DNA of 64,000 nt. It comes from a virus. The stretch lies in the IMG/VR virus record IMGVR_UViG_3300032287_003808, positions 32,001-96,000 of that record; one strand, written 5' to 3'. Below, in pieces: positions 31,527 to 59,221 of this stretch; the first letter of the stretch is position 1; every line of letters begins with the position of its first letter. The position numbers and the translations under genes are program-made. Below the pieces are notes generated by a model, which saw nothing but the letters and a program-made list of their open reading frames with translations, had not been told where the DNA came from and made no database searches.

Positions 31527-33380
31527 TTATAAAGGTACTACTTTTCCTTTAATATCTAACTCAGGGTATCTAACTTCAAAAATACTAGGGTCTAAAGAAG
31601 GGTATACAACTTGATTTTGGGTAGCTGCTGTTATATCATAAGCATATTGAGAATATCCCATCATAGTTCCTACTTTATTAGAAATAGCAATATTTTTAAC
31701 AGTTTGAACTCCTTTTATTTTATCTAAAAGTATATATAAATCTCTTAAAAATATAGGTTGATTAATTTGCCATTTATCACGAGCAAAATAATTTTGGACT
31801 GAAGTGATGCATGCCAAGATAACTTCGTTGTTGTTATATTCAGGTAAAACTATGATTTCAAAATTTACTCCTATATTAATAATATAAGCGTCTTTAATCT
31901 CAATAGAATCTCCTATTACTCTATATTGGGAAAGGTAAGTGCGAAGATTATTCTTTAATGTATTAGAGGCATAATCAAATTGACCTAAATTATTAAATGC
32001 TAAACAATAAAGATTTAAAGTTTCAATAGTTGAAACTTGTTCATCTGTTAATTGAGGTTGTTGAATATATGCTTTAGATAATGAACCATATATAGAAGGC
32101 ATACTTAAAGCTCTAACTAAATAATCATATGATGTTACAGATCTTTGTTGAGATGCTATAAGTGCTAAAGTATTTTGTCTAATTTGTTCTAAAGTATCTC
32201 CTGCTGATCCTCCAGAAGCTGCTTCTGGGTTTGATAAAGCTAAAGAAGAATTAATGTAATTAGCCGTTGTTGGGTTTAATCCTATAACATTAAAAGTATA
32301 TGCCGTTGGATCTATCTTAGTTAAAGAATTTGAAGGTAAATTTGAAGCAACTCCACCCCCTGTTAAATATCTAATGATTAAAGTAGTATTAGAAGGCGCT
32401 ATACCATAAGTATTAGTATATAAGAAATTAGTAGGAGAGTAAGCCGCAGTTAATTTATCCTGATAGAAGGGTAATCCTAATCCTACATTGTTAGGGTTAG
32501 GTGTTATTTCTTCATCATTATCTTGGGTTGTTCCTGAACCGAATTGGATAACTAGAGTGTTACGAGATGTGAATCGGGTAGTGAATCTTCTTTGGATTTT
32601 TTCTAGACGAAGTAAATAAGGTACTTGATTATTACTTACTGAGTTATTAGGGTCATTAATGTTAGTGTTAATAACAGGTTTATAAATCATTTCTTGTCCT
32701 AAATGATCTACTTCATACCATACATTTCCATCTGAATCTGTTATGTCAAGGATCCCTATTAAGTTAGGTTTATTAATCTCAATAGTTGAAAATTCTACAG
32801 GTTCATTAAAGGTTTGTGTAGTTGTATTTATTGTAGCGGATATAGCATTTCTTTGTTTTTTTAAAAGAAAGTATTGAGGGATAGTCCCTGCTATTTGATA
32901 TACAGAAATTTCTGTAGGGTCTTGAGAACTAGATATTGAGAAATCAATTTTATCTTGAGTTAAAAAAGATGTTCCATTTTGAGAACTAACTGTTGAATTT
33001 TCTCTTACAGTTAAGGCATAATCATAATCAGGTACATATTCACTACCAGAAAGCTTAGAAGGTAATTGTTGGTAAAAATTTAAAGTAACTTGAGCAACAC
33101 CCGTAGCTTTTGGTTTATATCCAAACATATAAGCCAACTCAAAGATGTTATTGGTTTGACGAGCATATTGAATAAAATTTTCTTGAAATTGATTATCAAG
33201 ATAAAAACTTAGAACATCACCAACATAAGCTGCTTGCTCCATAAATAACATCCCTGGGGATGCTGGGGAGAAGTCATTGTAAGTATTAGGGAAATAAGTC
33301 TTAGTATATTCAATTAATCGTTGTCTGAAATCATTGAAATCACGATTAATGTATTTGATGTCTCTGTTTACAGTCGCCAT
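31527..33380 (-). CDS. Baseplate wedge protein (gp6/baseplate J-like)
   Basis: RDFNDFRQRL...YNDFSPASPG...AYVGDVLSFYLD; IQFGSG; YLTGGG; ASGGS.GDT..QIR; QRSVT..DY. Confidence 0.9.
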   Translation of the reverse strand: MATVNRDIKYINRDFNDFRQRLIEYTKTYFPNTYNDFSPASPGMLFMEQAAYVGDVLSFYLDNQFQENFIQYARQTNNIFELAYMFGYKPKATGVAQVTLNFYQQLPSKLSGSEYVPDYDYALTVRENSTVSSQNGTSFLTQDKIDFSISSSQDPTEISVYQIAGTIPQYFLLKKQRNAISATINTTTQTFNEPVEFSTIEINKPNLIGILDITDSDGNVWYEVDHLGQEMIYKPVINTNINDPNNSVSNNQVPYLLRLEKIQRRFTTRFTSRNTLVIQFGSGTTQDNDEEITPNPNNVGLGLPFYQDKLTAAYSPTNFLYTNTYGIAPSNTTLIIRYLTGGGVASNLPSNSLTKIDPTAYTFNVIGLNPTTANYINSSLALSNPEAASGGSAGDTLEQIRQNTLALIASQQRSVTSYDYLVRALSMPSIYGSLSKAYIQQPQLTDEQVSTIETLNLYCLAFNNLGQFDYASNTLKNNLRTYLSQYRVIGDSIEIKDAYIINIGVNFEIIVLPEYNNNEVILACITSVQNYFARDKWQINQPIFLRDLYILLDKIKGVQTVKNIAISNKVGTMMGYSQYAYDITAATQNQVVYPSLDPSIFEVRYPELDIKGKVVPL

Positions 33381-41127: not shown

Positions 41128-41352
41128 CTACCATCTCGTCACTTGGTCATCATTGTTTTTGGTTGTCATGTATTCCGCATACGGGTCTTCACAGTTCTCA
41201 ATCGCTCTAACTATGTCACTTTTCAAATACGCAGCGTCCATCACGCTTAACTTACTTGTGTCGTAACCCATCGCCTTCAAGAAATCCATTACTGCGATGA
41301 ACTGATCCATTACGTTCACATCTACACCATCAAGTTTTTTCAAATTTTTCAT
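41128..41352 (-). CDS. Small hypothetical protein
   Basis: Own promoter and GGTTATG leader. Confidence 0.8.
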   Translation of the reverse strand: MKNLKKLDGVDVNVMDQFIAVMDFLKAMGYDTSKLSVMDAAYLKSDIVRAIENCEDPYAEYMTTKNNDDQVTRW

Positions 41353-41394
41353 AACCGCTATTTTTAATTATACTTTAATATACGTAATTCAATT

Positions 41395-41607
41395 TCAGAG
41401 TCTGTATCCCAACATATAATTGCCAATGTAACTATCTAAACTTGTTCCGCGGCAAATGTCATACCCTGTTTCCGCCTTGTCGTTATCACGTTTCGCATAC
41501 TCTTCTAACGCGGTGTACACTTCAGGTATCAATATTTTCTTCCACCCTGACAACTGTTCTGCTTGGATTCTCATTCCGTCCACTACTGTAAAAACTTTTC
41601 TTTCCAT
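41395..41607 (-). CDS. Small hypothetical protein
   Basis: Own promoter and leader. Confidence 0.8.
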   Translation of the reverse strand: MERKVFTVVDGMRIQAEQLSGWKKILIPEVYTALEEYAKRDNDKAETGYDICRGTSLDSYIGNYMLGYRL

Positions 41608-41647
41608 AACCGTTTCTTTAAATATACTTTAATATACGTAACTGTCT

Positions 41648-41782
41648 TTAGTCATTAGTGTCCTTAGCTAACTCTTCAAACTGTAATATCAACAACGGAA
41701 CCAATCCGATTAAACCCCAATCGTTCCCGAACGCCAATAATATCGTTCCAAATACTCCTACTGTAATACCAAATGTTCTCAT
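41648..41782 (-). CDS. Small membrane protein (44 aa)
   Basis: Not in track: MRTFGITVGVFGTILLAFGNDWGLIGLVPLLILQFEELAKDTND; leader identical over 23 nt to that of 41395..41607. Confidence 0.7.
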   Translation of the reverse strand: MRTFGITVGVFGTILLAFGNDWGLIGLVPLLILQFEELAKDTND

Positions 41783-41829
41783 AACCGTTTCTTTAAATAT
41801 ACTGAAATATACGTAATGTCATTTGCGAC

Positions 41830-42144
41830 TTATACTCCCGTCTTTGCTCTCAATATGTCATCTAACATGTCGATTAGGTCTCCTAGGTAGCCATTACGAG
41901 CTAAGTCATCTAAATCGTATGTCTGGTCTTCATAATACCCACCACAACAATCACATCCGAAATCAATATACTCACCTAACACTACTGTTCCGTTTTCGAA
42001 ATCGAAACCTCGCAACTCCAATTTACCCACTTTGTCAAGTCGATCACACCATAACTCCATTTCGAAATCGATGTCTTTAATTTTTCCGAATTGTGTAAAC
42101 GTGTTACACGCGTCCATAAACTCTCTTGCTGTCATAACCTTCAA
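41830..42144 (-). CDS. Acidic Cys-containing hypothetical protein
   Basis: GCDCCGG; ATG at 42135 has the GGTTATG leader and is the likelier start. Confidence 0.75.
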   Translation of the reverse strand: MKVMTAREFMDACNTFTQFGKIKDIDFEMELWCDRLDKVGKLELRGFDFENGTVVLGEYIDFGCDCCGGYYEDQTYDLDDLARNGYLGDLIDMLDDILRAKTGV

Positions 42145-42218
42145 TTTAGAATATACAATAAAGCAAATTTAACACCTACTACTCCCACTGCCAATAATAA
42201 ACATACTAAAACTTCCAT
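42141..42218 (-). CDS. 25-aa hydrophobic peptide
   Basis: Not in track: MEVLVCLLLAVGVVGVKFALLYILN; own promoter and leader. Confidence 0.55.
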   Translation of the reverse strand: MEVLVCLLLAVGVVGVKFALLYILN

Positions 42219-42268
42219 AACCGTTATTTTTAATTATACTTTAATATACGTAACAATGTTTGGTGTTA

Positions 42269-42427
42269 TTACTCCTTTATAACGTGTTTAATATACTCTC
42301 CCTCATCGAACCAATAAAACGCTAGTCGTCCGTCTTCAAGTCGTAACGTTATCACCGCTTGGTCTAAATTGCCATCCATACTCAAAATGTCGGCTCCGTG
42401 TTTCTGTAAAAATGTTTGCGTTCTCAT
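42269..42427 (-). CDS. Small hypothetical protein (52 aa)
   Basis: Not in track: MRTQTFLQKHGADILSMDGNLDQAVITLRLEDGRLAFYWFDEGEYIKHVIKE. Confidence 0.6.
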   Translation of the reverse strand: MRTQTFLQKHGADILSMDGNLDQAVITLRLEDGRLAFYWFDEGEYIKHVIKE

Positions 42428-42437
42428 GTACCCCGAA

Positions 42438-42455
42438 AGCCCGATTACTCGGGCT
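42438..42455 (-). terminator. GNRA-capped hairpin
   Basis: AGCCCGA-GTAA-TCGGGCT; weak U-tract. Confidence 0.55.
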
Positions 42456-42482
42456 CACAAGGTGTATATTTAAGATAACCGG

Positions 42483-42905
42483 TTATGAAGCGGTGTCGTT
42501 AATTACTACTTTTGGTCTTCCAAGTGGCATCACACCACCATTAGCGGCTTTCTTGGCTTCCATTTCCGCCAATCGTTTCTGGCGCGCACTTTCCCCATTC
42601 ACCGGGCGACCTTTTTTCAACTCACCATTTGCTCGTTTCGTCTCTAACTCCACTAACCGCATTTGGCGGGCACTGTCTGCCTTAATTGGTCGACCCTTTT
42701 TCAACTCACCATTCGCTCGTTTCTCAGCCAACTCGGCAATTCGTATTTGGCGGGCACTATCTGCCTTAACTGGTCGGCCTCGTTTCCCTGTTGTCTCTGG
42801 CTTGGCCATGTTTGCCAACATCTCTTCCAATACTACGCTCTTCATTGTATGAGCTCCTTTAATTCCTGCTGCAATCGCTGTTGCTACTAATTCATTTCTT
42901 TTCAT
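42483..42905 (-). CDS. AT-hook (GRP) repeat DNA-binding protein with Rho_N/HeH-like N-terminus
   Basis: Four GRP motifs in 28-aa repeats; ELVATAIAAGIKGAHTMKSVVL. Confidence 0.7.
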   Translation of the reverse strand: MKRNELVATAIAAGIKGAHTMKSVVLEEMLANMAKPETTGKRGRPVKADSARQIRIAELAEKRANGELKKGRPIKADSARQMRLVELETKRANGELKKGRPVNGESARQKRLAEMEAKKAANGGVMPLGRPKVVINDTAS

Positions 42906-42955
42906 AACTGTTATTTTTAATTATACTTTAATATACGTAACTGATTTAACTTAAC

Positions 42956-43096
42956 TTACTCCCCACTTAAACTGATGTAATTAAATTGGTTGTAATCCAT
43001 CTCACCAATAATCATAGATGCTACTACCGTTACTAATCCTACTACCGCAATGGTTCCCATTGCTCCTAATACTAATGTTTCAATCCAATTTTTCAT
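42956..43096 (-). CDS. Small membrane protein (46 aa)
   Basis: Not in track: MKNWIETLVLGAMGTIAVVGLVTVVASMIIGEMDYNQFNYISLSGE; own promoter. Confidence 0.65.
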   Translation of the reverse strand: MKNWIETLVLGAMGTIAVVGLVTVVASMIIGEMDYNQFNYISLSGE

Positions 43097-43137
43097 AACC
43101 TTTTTTTATTTAATATACGTAACCAATCTAACTAAAC

Positions 43138-43206
43138 TTACTCCTCATTATATTCAGAGTACCATTCAATCTTTTCCCAGCTAATTAGTCCATCAAAATT
43201 CTCCAT
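43138..43206 (-). CDS. 22-aa acidic peptide
   Basis: Not in track: MENFDGLISWEKIEWYSEYNEE; own promoter and GGTTATG leader. Confidence 0.55.
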   Translation of the reverse strand: MENFDGLISWEKIEWYSEYNEE

Positions 43207-43256
43207 AACCTTTATCTTAAAATATAATTAAATATAAGTAATTTACTTTAATTCAT

Positions 43257-43448
43257 TTACTCCTTACTTAACCATTTTAACCCATTAACATCTTTAACTT
43301 CAATAATCTCATACTCATTTTTATCCCTATCACACAATTCTTCAAACTCAATCTCACCCACCTCATAACCTAAACTCTCAATCAATTCTTCCTTACTATT
43401 ACTAATAAAACTAAAATTTAAACAATAATCAATCACTAAATACTTCAT
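43257..43448 (-). CDS. Acidic small protein encoded with no cytosine on the coding strand
   Basis: No G on + strand 43239-43479; protein lacks A, P, T, H, Q; own promoter and leader. Confidence 0.8.
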   Translation of the reverse strand: MKYLVIDYCLNFSFISNSKEELIESLGYEVGEIEFEELCDRDKNEYEIIEVKDVNGLKWLSKE

Positions 43449-44840: not shown

Positions 44841-45161
44841 TTATTCTTCACTTTTAATCATTTTTGGTCTCCCTAACTTAAAAGTTCCATTTAATTTTCT
44901 TTCTTCTATTTCCTTCAACCTCATCTGTCTTTTACTCTCTCCATTAACAGGTCTTCCTTTCTTTAACTCCCCATTACTTCTCTTCTCTTCTAATTCTTTT
45001 AGCCTTACCTGTCTAACACTATCTTCTTTAATGGGTCTTCCTTTTTTAATCTCCCCATTCTTTCTTCTTTCTTCTAATTCCTTTAGTCTTAATTGTCTTA
45101 CACTTTCAGGATTAACTGGGCGTCCCAATTGTTTTACTTCAATAATCTCTACTTTTTTCAT
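44841..45161 (-). CDS. AT-hook (GRP) repeat protein, paralog of 42483..42905
   Basis: Four GRP motifs in the same 28-aa repeat; no alanine. Confidence 0.75.
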   Translation of the reverse strand: MKKVEIIEVKQLGRPVNPESVRQLRLKELEERRKNGEIKKGRPIKEDSVRQVRLKELEEKRSNGELKKGRPVNGESKRQMRLKEIEERKLNGTFKLGRPKMIKSEE

Positions 45162-58941: not shown

Positions 58942-59098
58942 ATTTTATACTATACAACCACAATTACTGCATTTAACTATTGTTAGACCATTCATGTGGC
59001 GTACTGCTACATAAGTCTTTTTGTGTTCACATTTAACTGTTTCCATAACTTTTTATTTTAATATACGAAATTTCTTTTGCTTAAACAATTCCTTTAAT

Positions 59099-59136
59099 AA
59101 AAAAACCTGCCGTGCGTTCGTATCCACACGGCAGGT
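59099..59136 (-). terminator. Intrinsic terminator
   Basis: ACCTGCCGTGTG-GATACGAA-CGCACGGCAGGT-TTTTTT. Confidence 0.85.
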
Positions 59137-59160
59137 AAAAGAAACGGTTATGAAGCGTTT

Positions 59161-59221
59161 TGTAGTCAGGACAGGATTCGAACCTGTGGGTGCCTACCAG
59201 CGTATAATTGCTTACCTGACT
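59161..59221 (-). ncRNA. tRNA-like RNA lacking a normal anticodon arm
   Basis: Acceptor AGTCAGG/CCTGACT then ACA; perfect T arm ACAGG-TTCGAAT-CCTGT; only 27 nt between the acceptor 5' strand and the T arm. Confidence 0.75.

Follow-up and report, generated by a model that had tools for sequence, protein, structure and literature searches.

A candidate gene-sense 3′-end RNA module with inverted likeness to early-gene leaders, present twice in an uncultured freshwater phage genome

The 42.4-kb element and its counterpart at 59.1 kb

Within the window, that is, the whole stretch of 64,000 nucleotides that was analysed (positions 32,001 to 96,000 of the IMG/VR record IMGVR_UViG_3300032287_003808), a gene for an AT-hook-like protein is followed at 42.4 kb, on the minus strand, by a mini-hairpin, a spacer, a second stem-loop and a 52-aa gene (Table 1). 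The stop codon of the first gene (UAA, 42485-42483) falls within the loop of the mini-hairpin, and the second stem-loop stops 2 nt short of the ATG of the next gene (42427). The order described in an earlier note on this DNA, where the minus transcript covers the stop of the AT-hook gene and then reaches the hairpin AGCCCGA-GTAA-TCGGGCT, is indeed the one found. Stem-loop and 52-aa gene also follow each other in three related contigs (L001, L030 and L033), and in L246 a homologue of the 52-aa gene lies behind a hairpin too, although the anti-leader is missing there. Terminating ribosomes would cover the loop at 42.4 kb, and there is no obvious way for this copy to be processed. No Pfam or PHROG family was found for the AT-hook-like, 52-aa, 104-aa, 70-aa, 74-aa and 44-aa proteins, and Rfam gave no match at the gathering score in the whole window, with only chance-level ones at relaxed thresholds (the best at 42.4 kb being Yfr1, with 11.8 bits).

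Table 1. Positions, in the window, of the two elements, the adjoining genes and the best-matched candidate targets
Feature	Position	Strand	Description and basis
Type-2 mini-hairpin	42478..42494	minus	ACCG 42494-42491, loop CUUCAUAAC 42490-42482, CGGU 42481-42478; MFE fold and RNAalifold on 10 type-2 copies
Type-2 spacer	42464..42477	minus	UAUCUUAAAUAUAC; unpaired in MFE and centroid folds
Type-2 second stem-loop	42430..42463	minus	Upper part AGCCCGA/UCGGGCU, lower part ACCUUG/CGGGGU; fold
AT-hook-like gene	42483..42905	minus	ORF, 140 aa, four GRP repeats; final codons ..T A S stop inside the module
52-aa gene	42269..42427	minus	ORF directly behind the stem-loop; without a promoter-leader unit of its own
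Type-1 mini-hairpin	59142..59160	minus	AAACG / loop CUUCAUAAC / CGUUU; fold
Type-1 spacer, terminator hairpin and U-run	59096..59141	minus	Spacer CUUUU, hairpin 59136-59105; terminator scan: 12 pairs, then TTTTTTATTA
tRNA-like element	59163..59221	minus	59 nt, directly 5′ of the type-1 module; acceptor stem, D-like arm, 3-bp stub replacing the anticodon arm, T arm; sequence and fold
Leader and start of the 70-aa gene	41605..41627	minus	Exact 23-mer; best-matched candidate target; duplex -22.9 / -22.8 kcal/mol with the two modules
Leader and start of the 44-aa gene	41780..41802	minus	Exact 23-mer; best-matched candidate target; duplex -23.0 / -24.3 kcal/mol
Promoter-leader unit of the next small ORF	42216..42258	minus	CGG-type leader; duplex -20.0 / -21.2 kcal/mol

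The + strand letters at 42464-42492, GTATATTTAAGATAACCGGTTATGAAGCG, are the best match on that strand to the early-gene leader across the 131-kb genome. A gapped local alignment of the leader with the whole + strand scored 17 at 42.46 kb and 15 at 59.12 kb, against maxima of 11-15 in 20 shuffles, which bears out the resemblance in opposite orientation that the earlier note had pointed to. Its other sequence claims stood as well: the leader 23-mer has only two matches at three or fewer mismatches (0.00 expected), both exact and both on the minus strand, in front of the 70-aa and 44-aa genes; the 13 nt common to both sites, CGGTTATGAAGCG, occur only at 42480 and 59145, on the + strand (expectation 0.02; two copies in 0 of 100 shuffles), with no third copy in the 131,434 bp of the genome and none on the gene strand at two or fewer substitutions; and the palindrome, ATAACCGGTTAT, lies at 42475-42486. 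When AACGGTTATG was searched with one mismatch or none, 19 of the 21 matches were minus-strand gene starts, and the other two, which are the only ones on the + strand, were the 42.4- and 59.1-kb sites. The inverted likeness of the 42.4-kb element to the leader is confirmed as real and non-random.

The counterpart at 59.1 kb, here called type 1 (the 42.4-kb copy being type 2), is preceded by a tRNA-like element that ARAGORN, which found no tRNA genes in the window, did not call and whose fold is not a cloverleaf with an anticodon arm; the best sub-threshold Rfam match of this element was SpF41_sRNA, with 23.5 bits against a gathering score of 52. The scan for terminators between 42150 and 42650 returned no terminator-like site, and the 42.4-kb hairpin, with the tail TTTCGGGG, fails because its T-run is too short. 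The antisense-then-hairpin layout reported for both places therefore holds for the order of the parts but not for their 3′ ends, since a terminator follows only at 59.1 kb. In the same way, the proposal of a 3′UTR-derived module occurring twice stands as to the two paralogous gene-sense units of anti-leader and stem-loop, which are conserved and show minus-sense structure, and is not sustained as to the derivation, since the 42.4-kb copy has neither the terminator nor the upstream tRNA-like element that would release an RNA with defined ends, both of which are present at 59.1 kb.

Spread, conservation and folding

In low-GC phage contigs of IMG/VR the core CG-CTTCATAAC-CG recurs at 26 more distinct places, all of them co-directional with genes and each 5′ of a stem-loop, behind tRNA-like RNAs, AT-hook-like genes or a DUF932 gene. 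The carriers are uncultured freshwater phages, T4-like in a broad sense, whose hosts are probably Flavobacterium-type. All five module-bearing records hold one or two copies, this genome having two, and a MITE-like or many-copy repeat was rejected on these numbers. The search patterns fixed part of the core and left the flanks TTCTTTT, TATCTT and AAWTATAC free. Among the 11 type-1 copies, ACAAAA, core and TTCTTTT are nearly constant, with only 15 of these letters set by the search pattern; the mini-hairpin and the flank TTCTTTT are invariant in all 11, the tRNA-like body varies so much as to be barely alignable, and the terminator stems vary with compensatory changes among relatives. Eight to nine of the ten type-2 copies conserve the spacer blocks TATCTT and AA(A/T)TATAC. 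Core and spacer, the presumptive seed, are conserved above their flanks among module copies and also in natural populations: contigs from four DNA runs have no listed difference at 42462-42494, next to a stretch (42332-42461) riddled with them. A look-up of 41300-43300 listed no RNA run with this sequence. In L001, the nearest relative, the 33 nt of 42462-42494 are identical and the hairpin has changed with compensation, to AGCTCAC-TAAT-GTGGGCT.

The same core letters are kept as non-coding sequence behind tRNA-like RNAs, as ..TAS-stop in the AT-hook-like gene and as ..IAS-stop in the DUF932 gene, and protein coding therefore fails to explain them. The AT-hook-like orthologues in L001, L030, L033 and L044 end in ..ETAS, and more distant ones have other C-terminal ends and no module; at the orthologous loci, where the earlier note had suggested looking, the motif is present in three of six and missing from the three more distant ones. 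The idea that AT-hook genes read the motif in two frames was dropped, as the ORFs that reach into it in L010 and L016 have 50 and 22 codons and are not AT-hook-like, and a + strand protein was rejected as well, the ORF having 5 codons here and variable lengths and frames among relatives.

The distribution of the module is patchy. It is missing downstream of the gene in 18 of 21 DUF932 loci, and from all five related records of 43-140 kb that were compared, where the strand bias of GTTATG is still present, so the module is not an obligate partner of the leader. At least 21 further distinct tRNA-like 3′ ends of the same type were found, none of these 21 with the module among the matches listed, and its being a constant companion of such ends was rejected to that extent. 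No DNA match to the region or to either module was found among the INPHARED phages. The closest cultured phage, Flavobacterium phage vB_FspM_immuto (TerL 66%, DUF932 42%), lacks the module: it gave 2+2 matches at two mismatches, against 3+3 for the control, and the one inspected belongs to an unrelated repeat region. A full-text search of the literature, covering main texts, found no paper describing this element.

The module was folded both alone and in alignments. These excluded low-GC pattern hits without a following stem-loop (L014/L017, L078 and 16 of the 19 low-GC hits of another search) and all high-GC hits, which were taken to match by chance or in coding sequence; pair 8-22 would stay intact with L014 and L078 included. 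That pair, which flanks the core, is AU in 11, CG in 8 and UA in 1 of the 20 distinct rows, without mismatches, and 92.0% of cells are paired, against 79.5% in shuffles, a value equalled by 0 of 500 of these. The covariation comes from this one pair, with perhaps only two or three independent switches. Without guidance, RNAalifold recovered from the 10 type-2 copies the mini-hairpin and a two-part second hairpin, with compensatory changes in 6 of 15 pairs. Many pairs of the second hairpin are G-U (for instance in 8 of 10 copies at columns 75-99) and would be C-A mismatches on the opposite strand; they fit minus-sense RNA only. The MFE z-scores of the modules are -3.4 and -5.5. The mini-hairpin by itself is predicted to be thermodynamically marginal, with -2.3 kcal/mol at 42.4 kb, where 34 of 200 shuffles fold equally well, and -0.9 kcal/mol at 59.1 kb.

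Early leaders as candidate targets

GTT precedes ATG in 40 of 54 promoter-linked starts, and most early genes have the start context GTTATGAAG, to which the 9-nt loop of the module is complementary. The complement of the loop, GTTATGAA, is found at 25 sites on the gene strand and at three on the other strand, two of these three being the modules. In the type-2 spacer the complementarity goes on along the GTATATTTAAGATA part of long-form leaders, including their second TATAWT-like box, which lies downstream of the true promoter box and so is probably inside the 5′ UTR. Loop and spacer, both predicted to be unpaired, would therefore form an accessible seed complementary to translation-initiation regions. 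Duplexes of the modules with the five to six best start regions reach -19 to -24 kcal/mol, compared with -9 to -11 (sd 3-4) for random windows, a complementarity that follows from the sequence likeness and so adds no evidence of its own. The promoter-leader unit of the next small ORF lies 250 nt downstream of the 42.4-kb module, on the same RNA strand. A specific target starting with GTTATGAAGCG was ruled out, as no gene in the genome begins in this way, so that the stem, and not such a target, accounts for the CG after AAG. A matrix of modules against own and other phages’ leaders showed no diagonal signal, in a comparison where the leaders per phage are very unequal in number and the loop is invariant. 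Both modules lie under early promoters, so that a simple “late shut-off” timing is not evident.

We tentatively favour, with a confidence somewhat short of even, a portable gene-sense 3′-end RNA module that would yield anti-leader RNA, of which the 42.4-kb element would be the second copy in the genome. In the mechanism that we infer for its transcription, processing, pairing in the cell and effect on translation, a weak mini-hairpin would present its 9-nt loop, CUUCAUAAC, as the complement of the start-codon context GUUAUGAAG, a single-stranded pyrimidine or A-U spacer would prolong the complementarity back along the leader, and a stable stem-loop would complete the module. Loop and spacer would base-pair to early mRNAs across leader and start codon, most strongly in the CGG-type leaders at 41352, 41607, 41782 and 42218 and with one mismatch more in the common AAAGGTTATG leaders, and this pairing would either block initiation or make a double-strand cleavage site. 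From the 59.1-kb copy a small RNA could arise, with a 5′ end made by tRNA-type processing and a 3′ end set by the terminator, and the 42.4-kb copy, lying within a longer message, might act in read-through transcripts or after some other cleavage.

A bolder version, which we find possible and yet distinctly doubtful, is that the two modules constitute a “master” antisense RNA system of the phage, with a loop mirroring GUUAUGAA, where a tRNA-processed small RNA and its message-embedded twin would dampen the whole early class of about 40 genes, in a host phylum without Shine-Dalgarno pairing or Hfq, and where the cassette would travel while donating last codons and a stop. Regulatory RNAs of lytic phages are few, and to our knowledge none is established for phages of Bacteroidota, whose translation starts without Shine-Dalgarno pairing. 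If the proposal is right, a conserved and portable RNA end that mirrors a class-wide start-codon tag would offer a simple class-wide control of translation and a natural design for synthetic knock-down in Bacteroidota hosts; phage promoter-leader units would be re-usable in mirror image, and a 3′-end cassette would be swappable between RNA genes and protein genes. Even if the antisense idea fails, the element stays a conserved and well-defined RNA motif whose function has to be sought.

Alternative explanations and known systems

The same data can be read in other ways. The module could be a portable 3′-end cassette without any antisense role, its mini-hairpin being a recognition element for a protein or an RNase (in 3′ processing or stability, for a termination or antitermination factor, or as a mimic of a CAU anticodon arm) and its likeness to the leader an old inverted leader or an A/U-rich coincidence. 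We think this unlikely, even though every copy of the module is found where a transcription unit ends, with a stem-loop or terminator immediately downstream, the loop is invariant as a protein site would be, the distribution looks accessory-like, and no co-evolution with leaders appears in the module-leader matrix; the loop UUCAUAA between a C-C mismatch presumably also resembles a 7-nt anticodon loop with CAU. A pure protein hairpin, however, has no need for spacers that are themselves complementary to the leader, over 15 exact nt at 59.1 kb and over the whole inferred 5′ UTR at 42.4 kb; no candidate protein is known, and the stem has only 4-5 bp. There is a smaller chance, slight in our estimate, that the element is a DNA-level relic or recombination patch, an inverted unit of hairpin, promoter and leader left by the shuffling of cassettes, or serving it, without function as RNA. 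The gain and loss of cassettes bounded by promoter-leader repeats (as in L001, where two such units enclose an additional gene) fits this idea, as does the mobility of the module, which has changed contexts and furnishes two different genes with their final codons; the divergence profile breaks near 42461/42462, and contigs of three of the four runs join 42253 to 42916, a weak joint because its shorter side has only 28 letters. The promoter-early stem-loop (PeSL) cassettes of T4-type phages are described as mediating a shuffling of this kind (PMC4122927), but the words “inverted” and “orientation” are absent from the available text of that paper. A neutral relic would decay, whereas here core and spacer do not vary and the stems next to them have changed in a compensated way; one or two copies per genome, against about 55 direct promoter units, make a poor substrate for shuffling, and the G-U pairs point to selection on RNA.

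Two further readings had been put forward in the earlier note, and neither fared well. A double-stranded DNA operator with dyad symmetry, A(A/C/T)CG-N9-CG(T/G/A)T, for a phage regulator that would also recognise the ..GGTTATG of early leaders, is very unlikely: the 12-nt palindrome that it requires is missing from the type-1 copies, the 59.1-kb one among them, and in several relatives it is imperfect, the second arm is missing from true leaders, an invariant 9-nt spacer would be unusual, the outer pair 6-24 is G-U or U-G in 5 of 20 rows, and G-U pairs are many in the neighbouring hairpin. All this outweighs an arm symmetry kept through three states, which would suit a dimeric binder too, the striking conservation of GGTTATG at about 40 early starts and the presence nearby of genes for two AT-hook-like proteins. 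We regard as highly improbable a working + strand promoter and leader, the product of which (an antisense transcript, or else the 5-codon peptide MKRCR) would reach into the 3′ end of the AT-hook-like gene. The + strand does show the order stem-loop, TATATT, A-rich leader and GGTTATG, with a promoter-like 14 nt from TATATT to ATG, and in two relatives the critical promoter position is a C (L114, ATCGTATATT, and L072b, GGCGTATAAT). Nevertheless, the site scores 3.8 bits on the promoter-leader profile of the genome (E 14, rank 71 of 114 hits); GGTG replaces the T(T/A)CG of the consensus T(T/A)C(G/T/A)TATATT, so that a T stands where every minus-strand promoter-type TATATT has the invariant C before (G/T/A)TATATT (prefixes TTCG, TACG, TACT, TTCA and TACA), the -23 GGA box is missing, and no sigma-70-type site was found. 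The 59.1-kb type keeps the leader part and has a terminator stem in place of the promoter box, neither length nor frame of the mini-ORF is conserved, and the G-U pairs fit the opposite strand.

The proposed anti-leader RNA module can be compared with several known systems. C4 of phages P1/P7 is a small antisense RNA that a tRNA-processing enzyme cuts from a longer precursor and that targets phage messages where their translation starts, and the 59.1-kb copy matches it in layout, being placed behind a tRNA-like element, a neighbour that the 42.4-kb copy lacks. There is no relation in sequence or through Rfam, and C4 serves one operon of a temperate phage, whereas the motif complementary to the module recurs at about 40 early genes in a genome of lytic type. 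The C4 precursor is listed as a substrate of RNase P (Hartmann et al. 1995, via PMC11143913). The module also resembles, in having its putative seed at the 3′ end of a coding message before a terminal stem-loop, bacterial base-pairing sRNAs derived from 3′ UTRs such as CpxQ, SroC, DapZ and MicL, and the 3′UTR-to-5′UTR fold-back of icaR in S. aureus, and, as with these, its action may be in cis or, after cleavage, in trans. Such systems rely on Hfq/ProQ or on Shine-Dalgarno pairing. The presumed host group, as far as the available text of PMC7366714 goes, has no obvious Hfq, ProQ or use of Shine-Dalgarno sequences, and the same text describes in Bacteroides thetaiotaomicron the sRNA GibS, whose single-stranded seed across a start codon represses without either Shine-Dalgarno pairing or Hfq. 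GibS suggests that start-codon pairing is feasible in Bacteroidota, the presumed kind of host; as described there, it is encoded by the host in an intergenic region, and has a long 5′ seed and two metabolic mRNA targets. Its sequence bears no likeness to the module.

The about 55 direct units of this genome, composed of a stem-loop or stop codon, an early promoter and a leader, look and behave like PeSLs, including the bounded gain and loss of cassettes, and the module includes a mirror image of one of them. A PeSL combines promoter and terminator in gene sense and recurs many times per genome, whereas the module is inverted, defective as a promoter, present in one or two copies and endowed with an extra hairpin. 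In the T4 genes e, soc and I-TevI, hairpins sequester the ribosome binding site in read-through transcripts while transcripts from their own promoters stay translatable, a situation that would fit the 42.4-kb copy and the leader 250 nt downstream; the arms of the T4 hairpins are adjacent and specific for one gene, whereas here they would be 250-850 nt apart, and the type-1 copy is followed by a terminator.

The promoter-leader array and the element at 42.4 kb

The whole virus record, of which the window covers bases 32001-96000, is a single sequence of 131,434 bp with a G+C content of about 30%. Its large terminase is 66% identical to that of Flavobacterium phage vB_FspM_immuto (42% for the DUF932 protein), with thousands of T4-type phages ranking below vB_FspM_immuto in the terminase match list, and a search of INPHARED found no relative of the phage at the DNA level. 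Parts of the region occur in DNA runs from freshwater and lake metagenomes. From these matches and this source, we take it to be an uncultured phage, distantly T4-like, for which we infer a Flavobacterium-type host.

Nearly every gene from about 38 kb to past 64 kb is on the minus strand and has one promoter-leader unit before it, wherein a GGA-containing box is followed by gTT(T/A)C(G/T/A)TATATT and by an A-rich leader ending in ..AAgGTTATG. The GGA box often contains the previous stop codon or sits within a small hairpin. With at most one mismatch allowed, TACGTATATT was matched at 59 sites on the minus strand and at 3 on the plus strand; an ATG follows within 32 nt in 54 units, and GTT stands immediately 5′ of the ATG in 40 of these 54 promoter-linked starts. 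Long-form leaders have another TATAWT-like box (GTATATTT.. or GTATAATT..); it lies 3′ of the real promoter box and hence, given the inferred transcription starts, probably within the 5′ UTR.

The earlier note had described a leader-like copy on the plus strand near 42.4 kb, and each of its sequence statements was correct on re-inspection: the leader 23-mer has exactly two copies, and the 13-mer common to 42480 and 59145 is found only there in the whole genome. When the leader was aligned with gaps against the entire plus strand, 42.46 kb came out best, with a score of 17, and 59.12 kb next, with 15; 20 shuffles gave maxima of 11-15. The element contains the stop codon of the AT-hook-like gene and is followed 3′ by a stem-loop; 42427 is the start of the next gene, which lacks its own promoter-leader unit. 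The layout claimed to be the same at both sites is so as regards an element followed by a stem-loop; however, the 59.1-kb stem-loop is a strong minus-strand terminator, whereas the one at 42.4 kb has no T-run and received no terminator call. The earlier reading, an antisense RNA module present twice, is supported in part: the element is a real, conserved and structured module of RNA type, for which a putative antisense function is plausible.

Structure and distribution of the module

In gene-sense RNA, all copies share the core N-CG-[C(C/T)TTCATAAC]-CG-N', which was aligned over 29 columns in 28 copies (20 distinct rows). Of these rows, 11 have A-U at N-N', 8 have C-G and 1 has U-A, with no mismatches; N lay outside every search pattern, and N' was restricted to G or T in the scan that returned 84 stretches and to A or C in the one that returned 110. 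The independent switches at this covarying pair may perhaps number only two or three. Helix pairing amounts to 92.0%; shuffles gave 79.5%, with none of the 500 attaining 92.0%, and a slid partner gave at most 51%. The result was unchanged without the U-A rows. For ten type-2 copies (the 42.4-kb kind), RNAalifold independently predicted the mini-hairpin and a second stem-loop extended at its base; compensatory change is seen in 6 of the 15 pairs. The second stem-loop holds many minus-sense G-U pairs (for example, in 8 of 10 sequences at columns 75-99), which would be C-A on the opposite strand; selection therefore acts on the fold of the gene-sense RNA. Folded singly, both genome copies give the mini-hairpin, an unpaired spacer and a large hairpin, with z-scores of -3.4 and -5.5; the isolated mini-hairpin is weak (-0.9 and -2.3 kcal/mol).

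Three IMG/VR pattern scans returned 84, 14 and 110 stretches, which were mostly chance matches in unrelated, G+C-richer contigs. Matches were kept as module-like only where they ran in the direction of the local genes and had a stem-loop behind them, which left 26 distinct copies in low-G+C contigs. Five module-bearing records (36-106 kb) have one or two copies each, and this genome has exactly two. In L001, the nearest relative through a neighbouring protein (93% identity over a 104-aa protein), the 33 nt ACCGCTTCATAACCGGTTATCTTAAATATACAC are unchanged, and the next hairpin, AGCTCAC-TAAT-GTGGGCT, is altered on both arms.

Settings of the module (L numbers are loci of relatives, mostly from IMG/VR)
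Group	Members	Arrangement
Type 1	10 relatives and the 59.1-kb copy	tRNA-like 3′ end, ACAAAA, core, TTCTTTT, terminator
Type 2	9 relatives and the 42.4-kb copy	core, TATCTT..AA(A/T)TATAC(A/G)C, two-part stem-loop ending ..GGGCTTT(C/T)GG(G/T)G
Type 2	L001, L030, L033, L044	behind AT-hook-like gene
Type 2	L069, L072, L082, L086, L114	behind second tRNA-like element
Four copies	L010, L016, L111, L079	other settings
Type-1-like, three copies	L261, L350, L352	directly continuing DUF932 gene

In the last three loci, all of very low G+C, the mini-hairpin supplies the last codons I-A-S and the stop of DUF932, as it does the end of the AT-hook-like gene here; therefore, the module acts as a ready-made gene end.

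The presence of the module is patchy. Among six loci of AT-hook orthologues retrieved independently of the motif, it occurs in the three closest (78-92% identity) and is missing from the other three (66%, 65% and 46%), one of which, L246, keeps the hairpin and the 52-aa gene, but its AT-hook orthologue has a different C-terminus and there is no anti-leader. Of 21 loci of DUF932 orthologues, 3 have the tRNA-like element and module directly downstream, 4 the tRNA-like element without the module and 1 an ordinary tRNA; 4 hold the module anywhere within the locus. Five related records (43-140 kb) found via DUF932 gave no core at up to one mismatch, and their loci still show the GTTATG strand bias. 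At least 21 further distinct tRNA-like 3′ ends of the 59.1-kb type had no module among the matches listed. The module is thus a lineage-restricted, movable cassette rather than an obligate companion of the leaders; the 42.4-kb copy appears to have taken the place of the 3′ end that the AT-hook-like gene had originally.

The stretch 42424-42549 is covered by contigs of four DNA runs, which come from four studies. Differences are listed at 42443, 42456 and 42459-42461, together with indels in the hairpin; none is listed over 42462-42494, and differences resume at 42495 and 42500, with about 28 listed in the 52-aa gene. This pattern fits a constraint on the core, and equally a mosaic breakpoint at the module edge.

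Predicted pairing with early leaders and rival explanations

The mini-hairpin loop CUUCAUAAC is the complement of GUUAUGAAG, and GTTATGAA occurs 25 times on the gene strand against 3 on the other, two of the latter being the modules themselves. The type-1 spacer lengthens the complementarity to 15 exact nt of the leaders at 41607 and 41782; in long-form leaders, the second TATAWT-like box is matched by the type-2 spacer. Predicted duplexes between module and best start regions reach -19 to -24 kcal/mol, against means of -9 to -11 (sd 3-4) for random 45-nt same-strand windows and of -7 to -8 for shuffled modules; the start region of the AT-hook-like gene itself gives -16.7 kcal/mol. No gene in the genome starts with GTTATGAAGCG, and therefore it is the stem, rather than any single target, that explains the conserved CG after AAG. 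On the best-supported reading, the loop and spacer exposed in the gene-sense RNA could pair with early messages at their leader and start codon. The 59.1-kb copy has the anatomy of a releasable small RNA, with the tRNA-like element 5′ and the terminator 3′; the 42.4-kb copy, embedded in a message, would act in read-through transcripts, where the nearest leader to match it lies 250 nt downstream, or after cleavage. Repression by start-codon pairing is workable in Bacteroidota with neither SD nor Hfq (PMC7366714). Among phages, the closest precedent is the C4 antisense RNA of P1/P7, whose precursor is an RNase P substrate (PMC11143913).

Counted against such an antisense role are the weak stem, the patchy distribution, the lack of any signal of module-leader co-evolution, the early-promoter control of the modules and the terminating ribosomes that would cover the 42.4-kb loop. 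Rival explanations are a hairpin that a protein or RNase recognizes at the ends of transcripts, a relic of recombination of the PeSL kind (PMC4122927) and a dyad-symmetric DNA operator. A plus-strand promoter, the antisense promoter of the earlier note, fits poorly: on the profile of the genome's 54 promoter-leader units, the element scores 3.8 bits (E 14, rank 71 of 114) and the 59.1-kb copy 5.3 bits; a T stands at 42.4 kb where every minus-strand promoter-type site has C before (G/T/A)TATATT; no sigma-70-type site was found there; and type-1 copies keep the leader part with a terminator stem in the place of the promoter box. Plus-strand mini-ORFs are inconstant in length and frame among copies. 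Protein coding as the reason for the letters was rejected, since the same core stands behind RNA genes and within both ..T-A-S-stop (AT-hook-like) and ..I-A-S-stop (DUF932).

Neighbouring features

Features of the region and of relatives (window coordinates unless stated)
Feature	Position	Strand	Observation
Promoter-leader array	about 38000-64000	minus	about 55 near-identical units; previous stop codon often in GGA(A/G)TAA box or in loop of small G/C hairpin ~10 nt before promoter
Leaders with CGGTTATG (not AGGTTATG or AGTTATG)	41350-42258	minus	only four in genome, within <900 nt directly downstream of 42.4-kb module; adjacency kept in L001, partly in L030, not in L033, L044, L072, L082, L086
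52-aa gene	42269-42427	minus	about 28 differences listed over 42332-42423
AT-hook-like gene	42483-42905	minus	carries module
Its paralogue	44841-45161	minus	no module
Contig joint	42253 to 42916		in 3 of 4 runs; would remove AT-hook-like gene, module and 52-aa gene
Extra small gene in L001	L001 385-590, against 42255-42216		exactly between two promoter-leader units; absent from window
tRNA-like element	59163-59221	minus	acceptor and T arms; aberrant middle, a 3-bp stub
Its genome paralogues	about 66346-66469, 67100-67260		outside window
GTAGAACCGACGGCCGCGTAAAGGTGCCGCTAC segment	59232-59270	minus	conserved, between DUF932 stop and tRNA-like element
L065 insertion	L065 12687-12701		15 nt between mini-hairpin and TTTCTTTT spacer of a type-1 copy; small GGGC-ATA-GCCC hairpin with duplicated CCGTT
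Repeats in immuto	NC_055915.1 about 66760-66900 (L240 1380-1520)		about 10 copies of (G/T)(A/T)(A/C)CCCG(T/A), ~11 nt apart, iteron-like

The array is a PeSL-like architecture in a Flavobacterium-type phage. The contig joint is weak because its shorter side has only 28 letters within a repeat. Both small proteins of the paralogous pair have three or four K/R-GRP repeats, with ..SARQxRLxELExKRxNGELKK as the spacer; they matched no Pfam or PHROG family and are AT-hook-like by eye only.

Paralogues and relatives of the tRNA-like element have inserts of 45-100 nt in the middle. ARAGORN called no tRNA-like element within the window; in the whole genome it found tRNA-Met and tRNA-Leu and, only in intron mode, one paralogue as 'tRNA-Gln with intron'. 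The segment between the DUF932 stop and this element may be a further small RNA structure, and its variants in four relatives (L088, L094, L042 and L068) retain a GTAG..CTAC closing stem. In the cultured phage immuto, a terminator-like hairpin comes after the repeat run, and then a gene start that has AAAGGTTATG.
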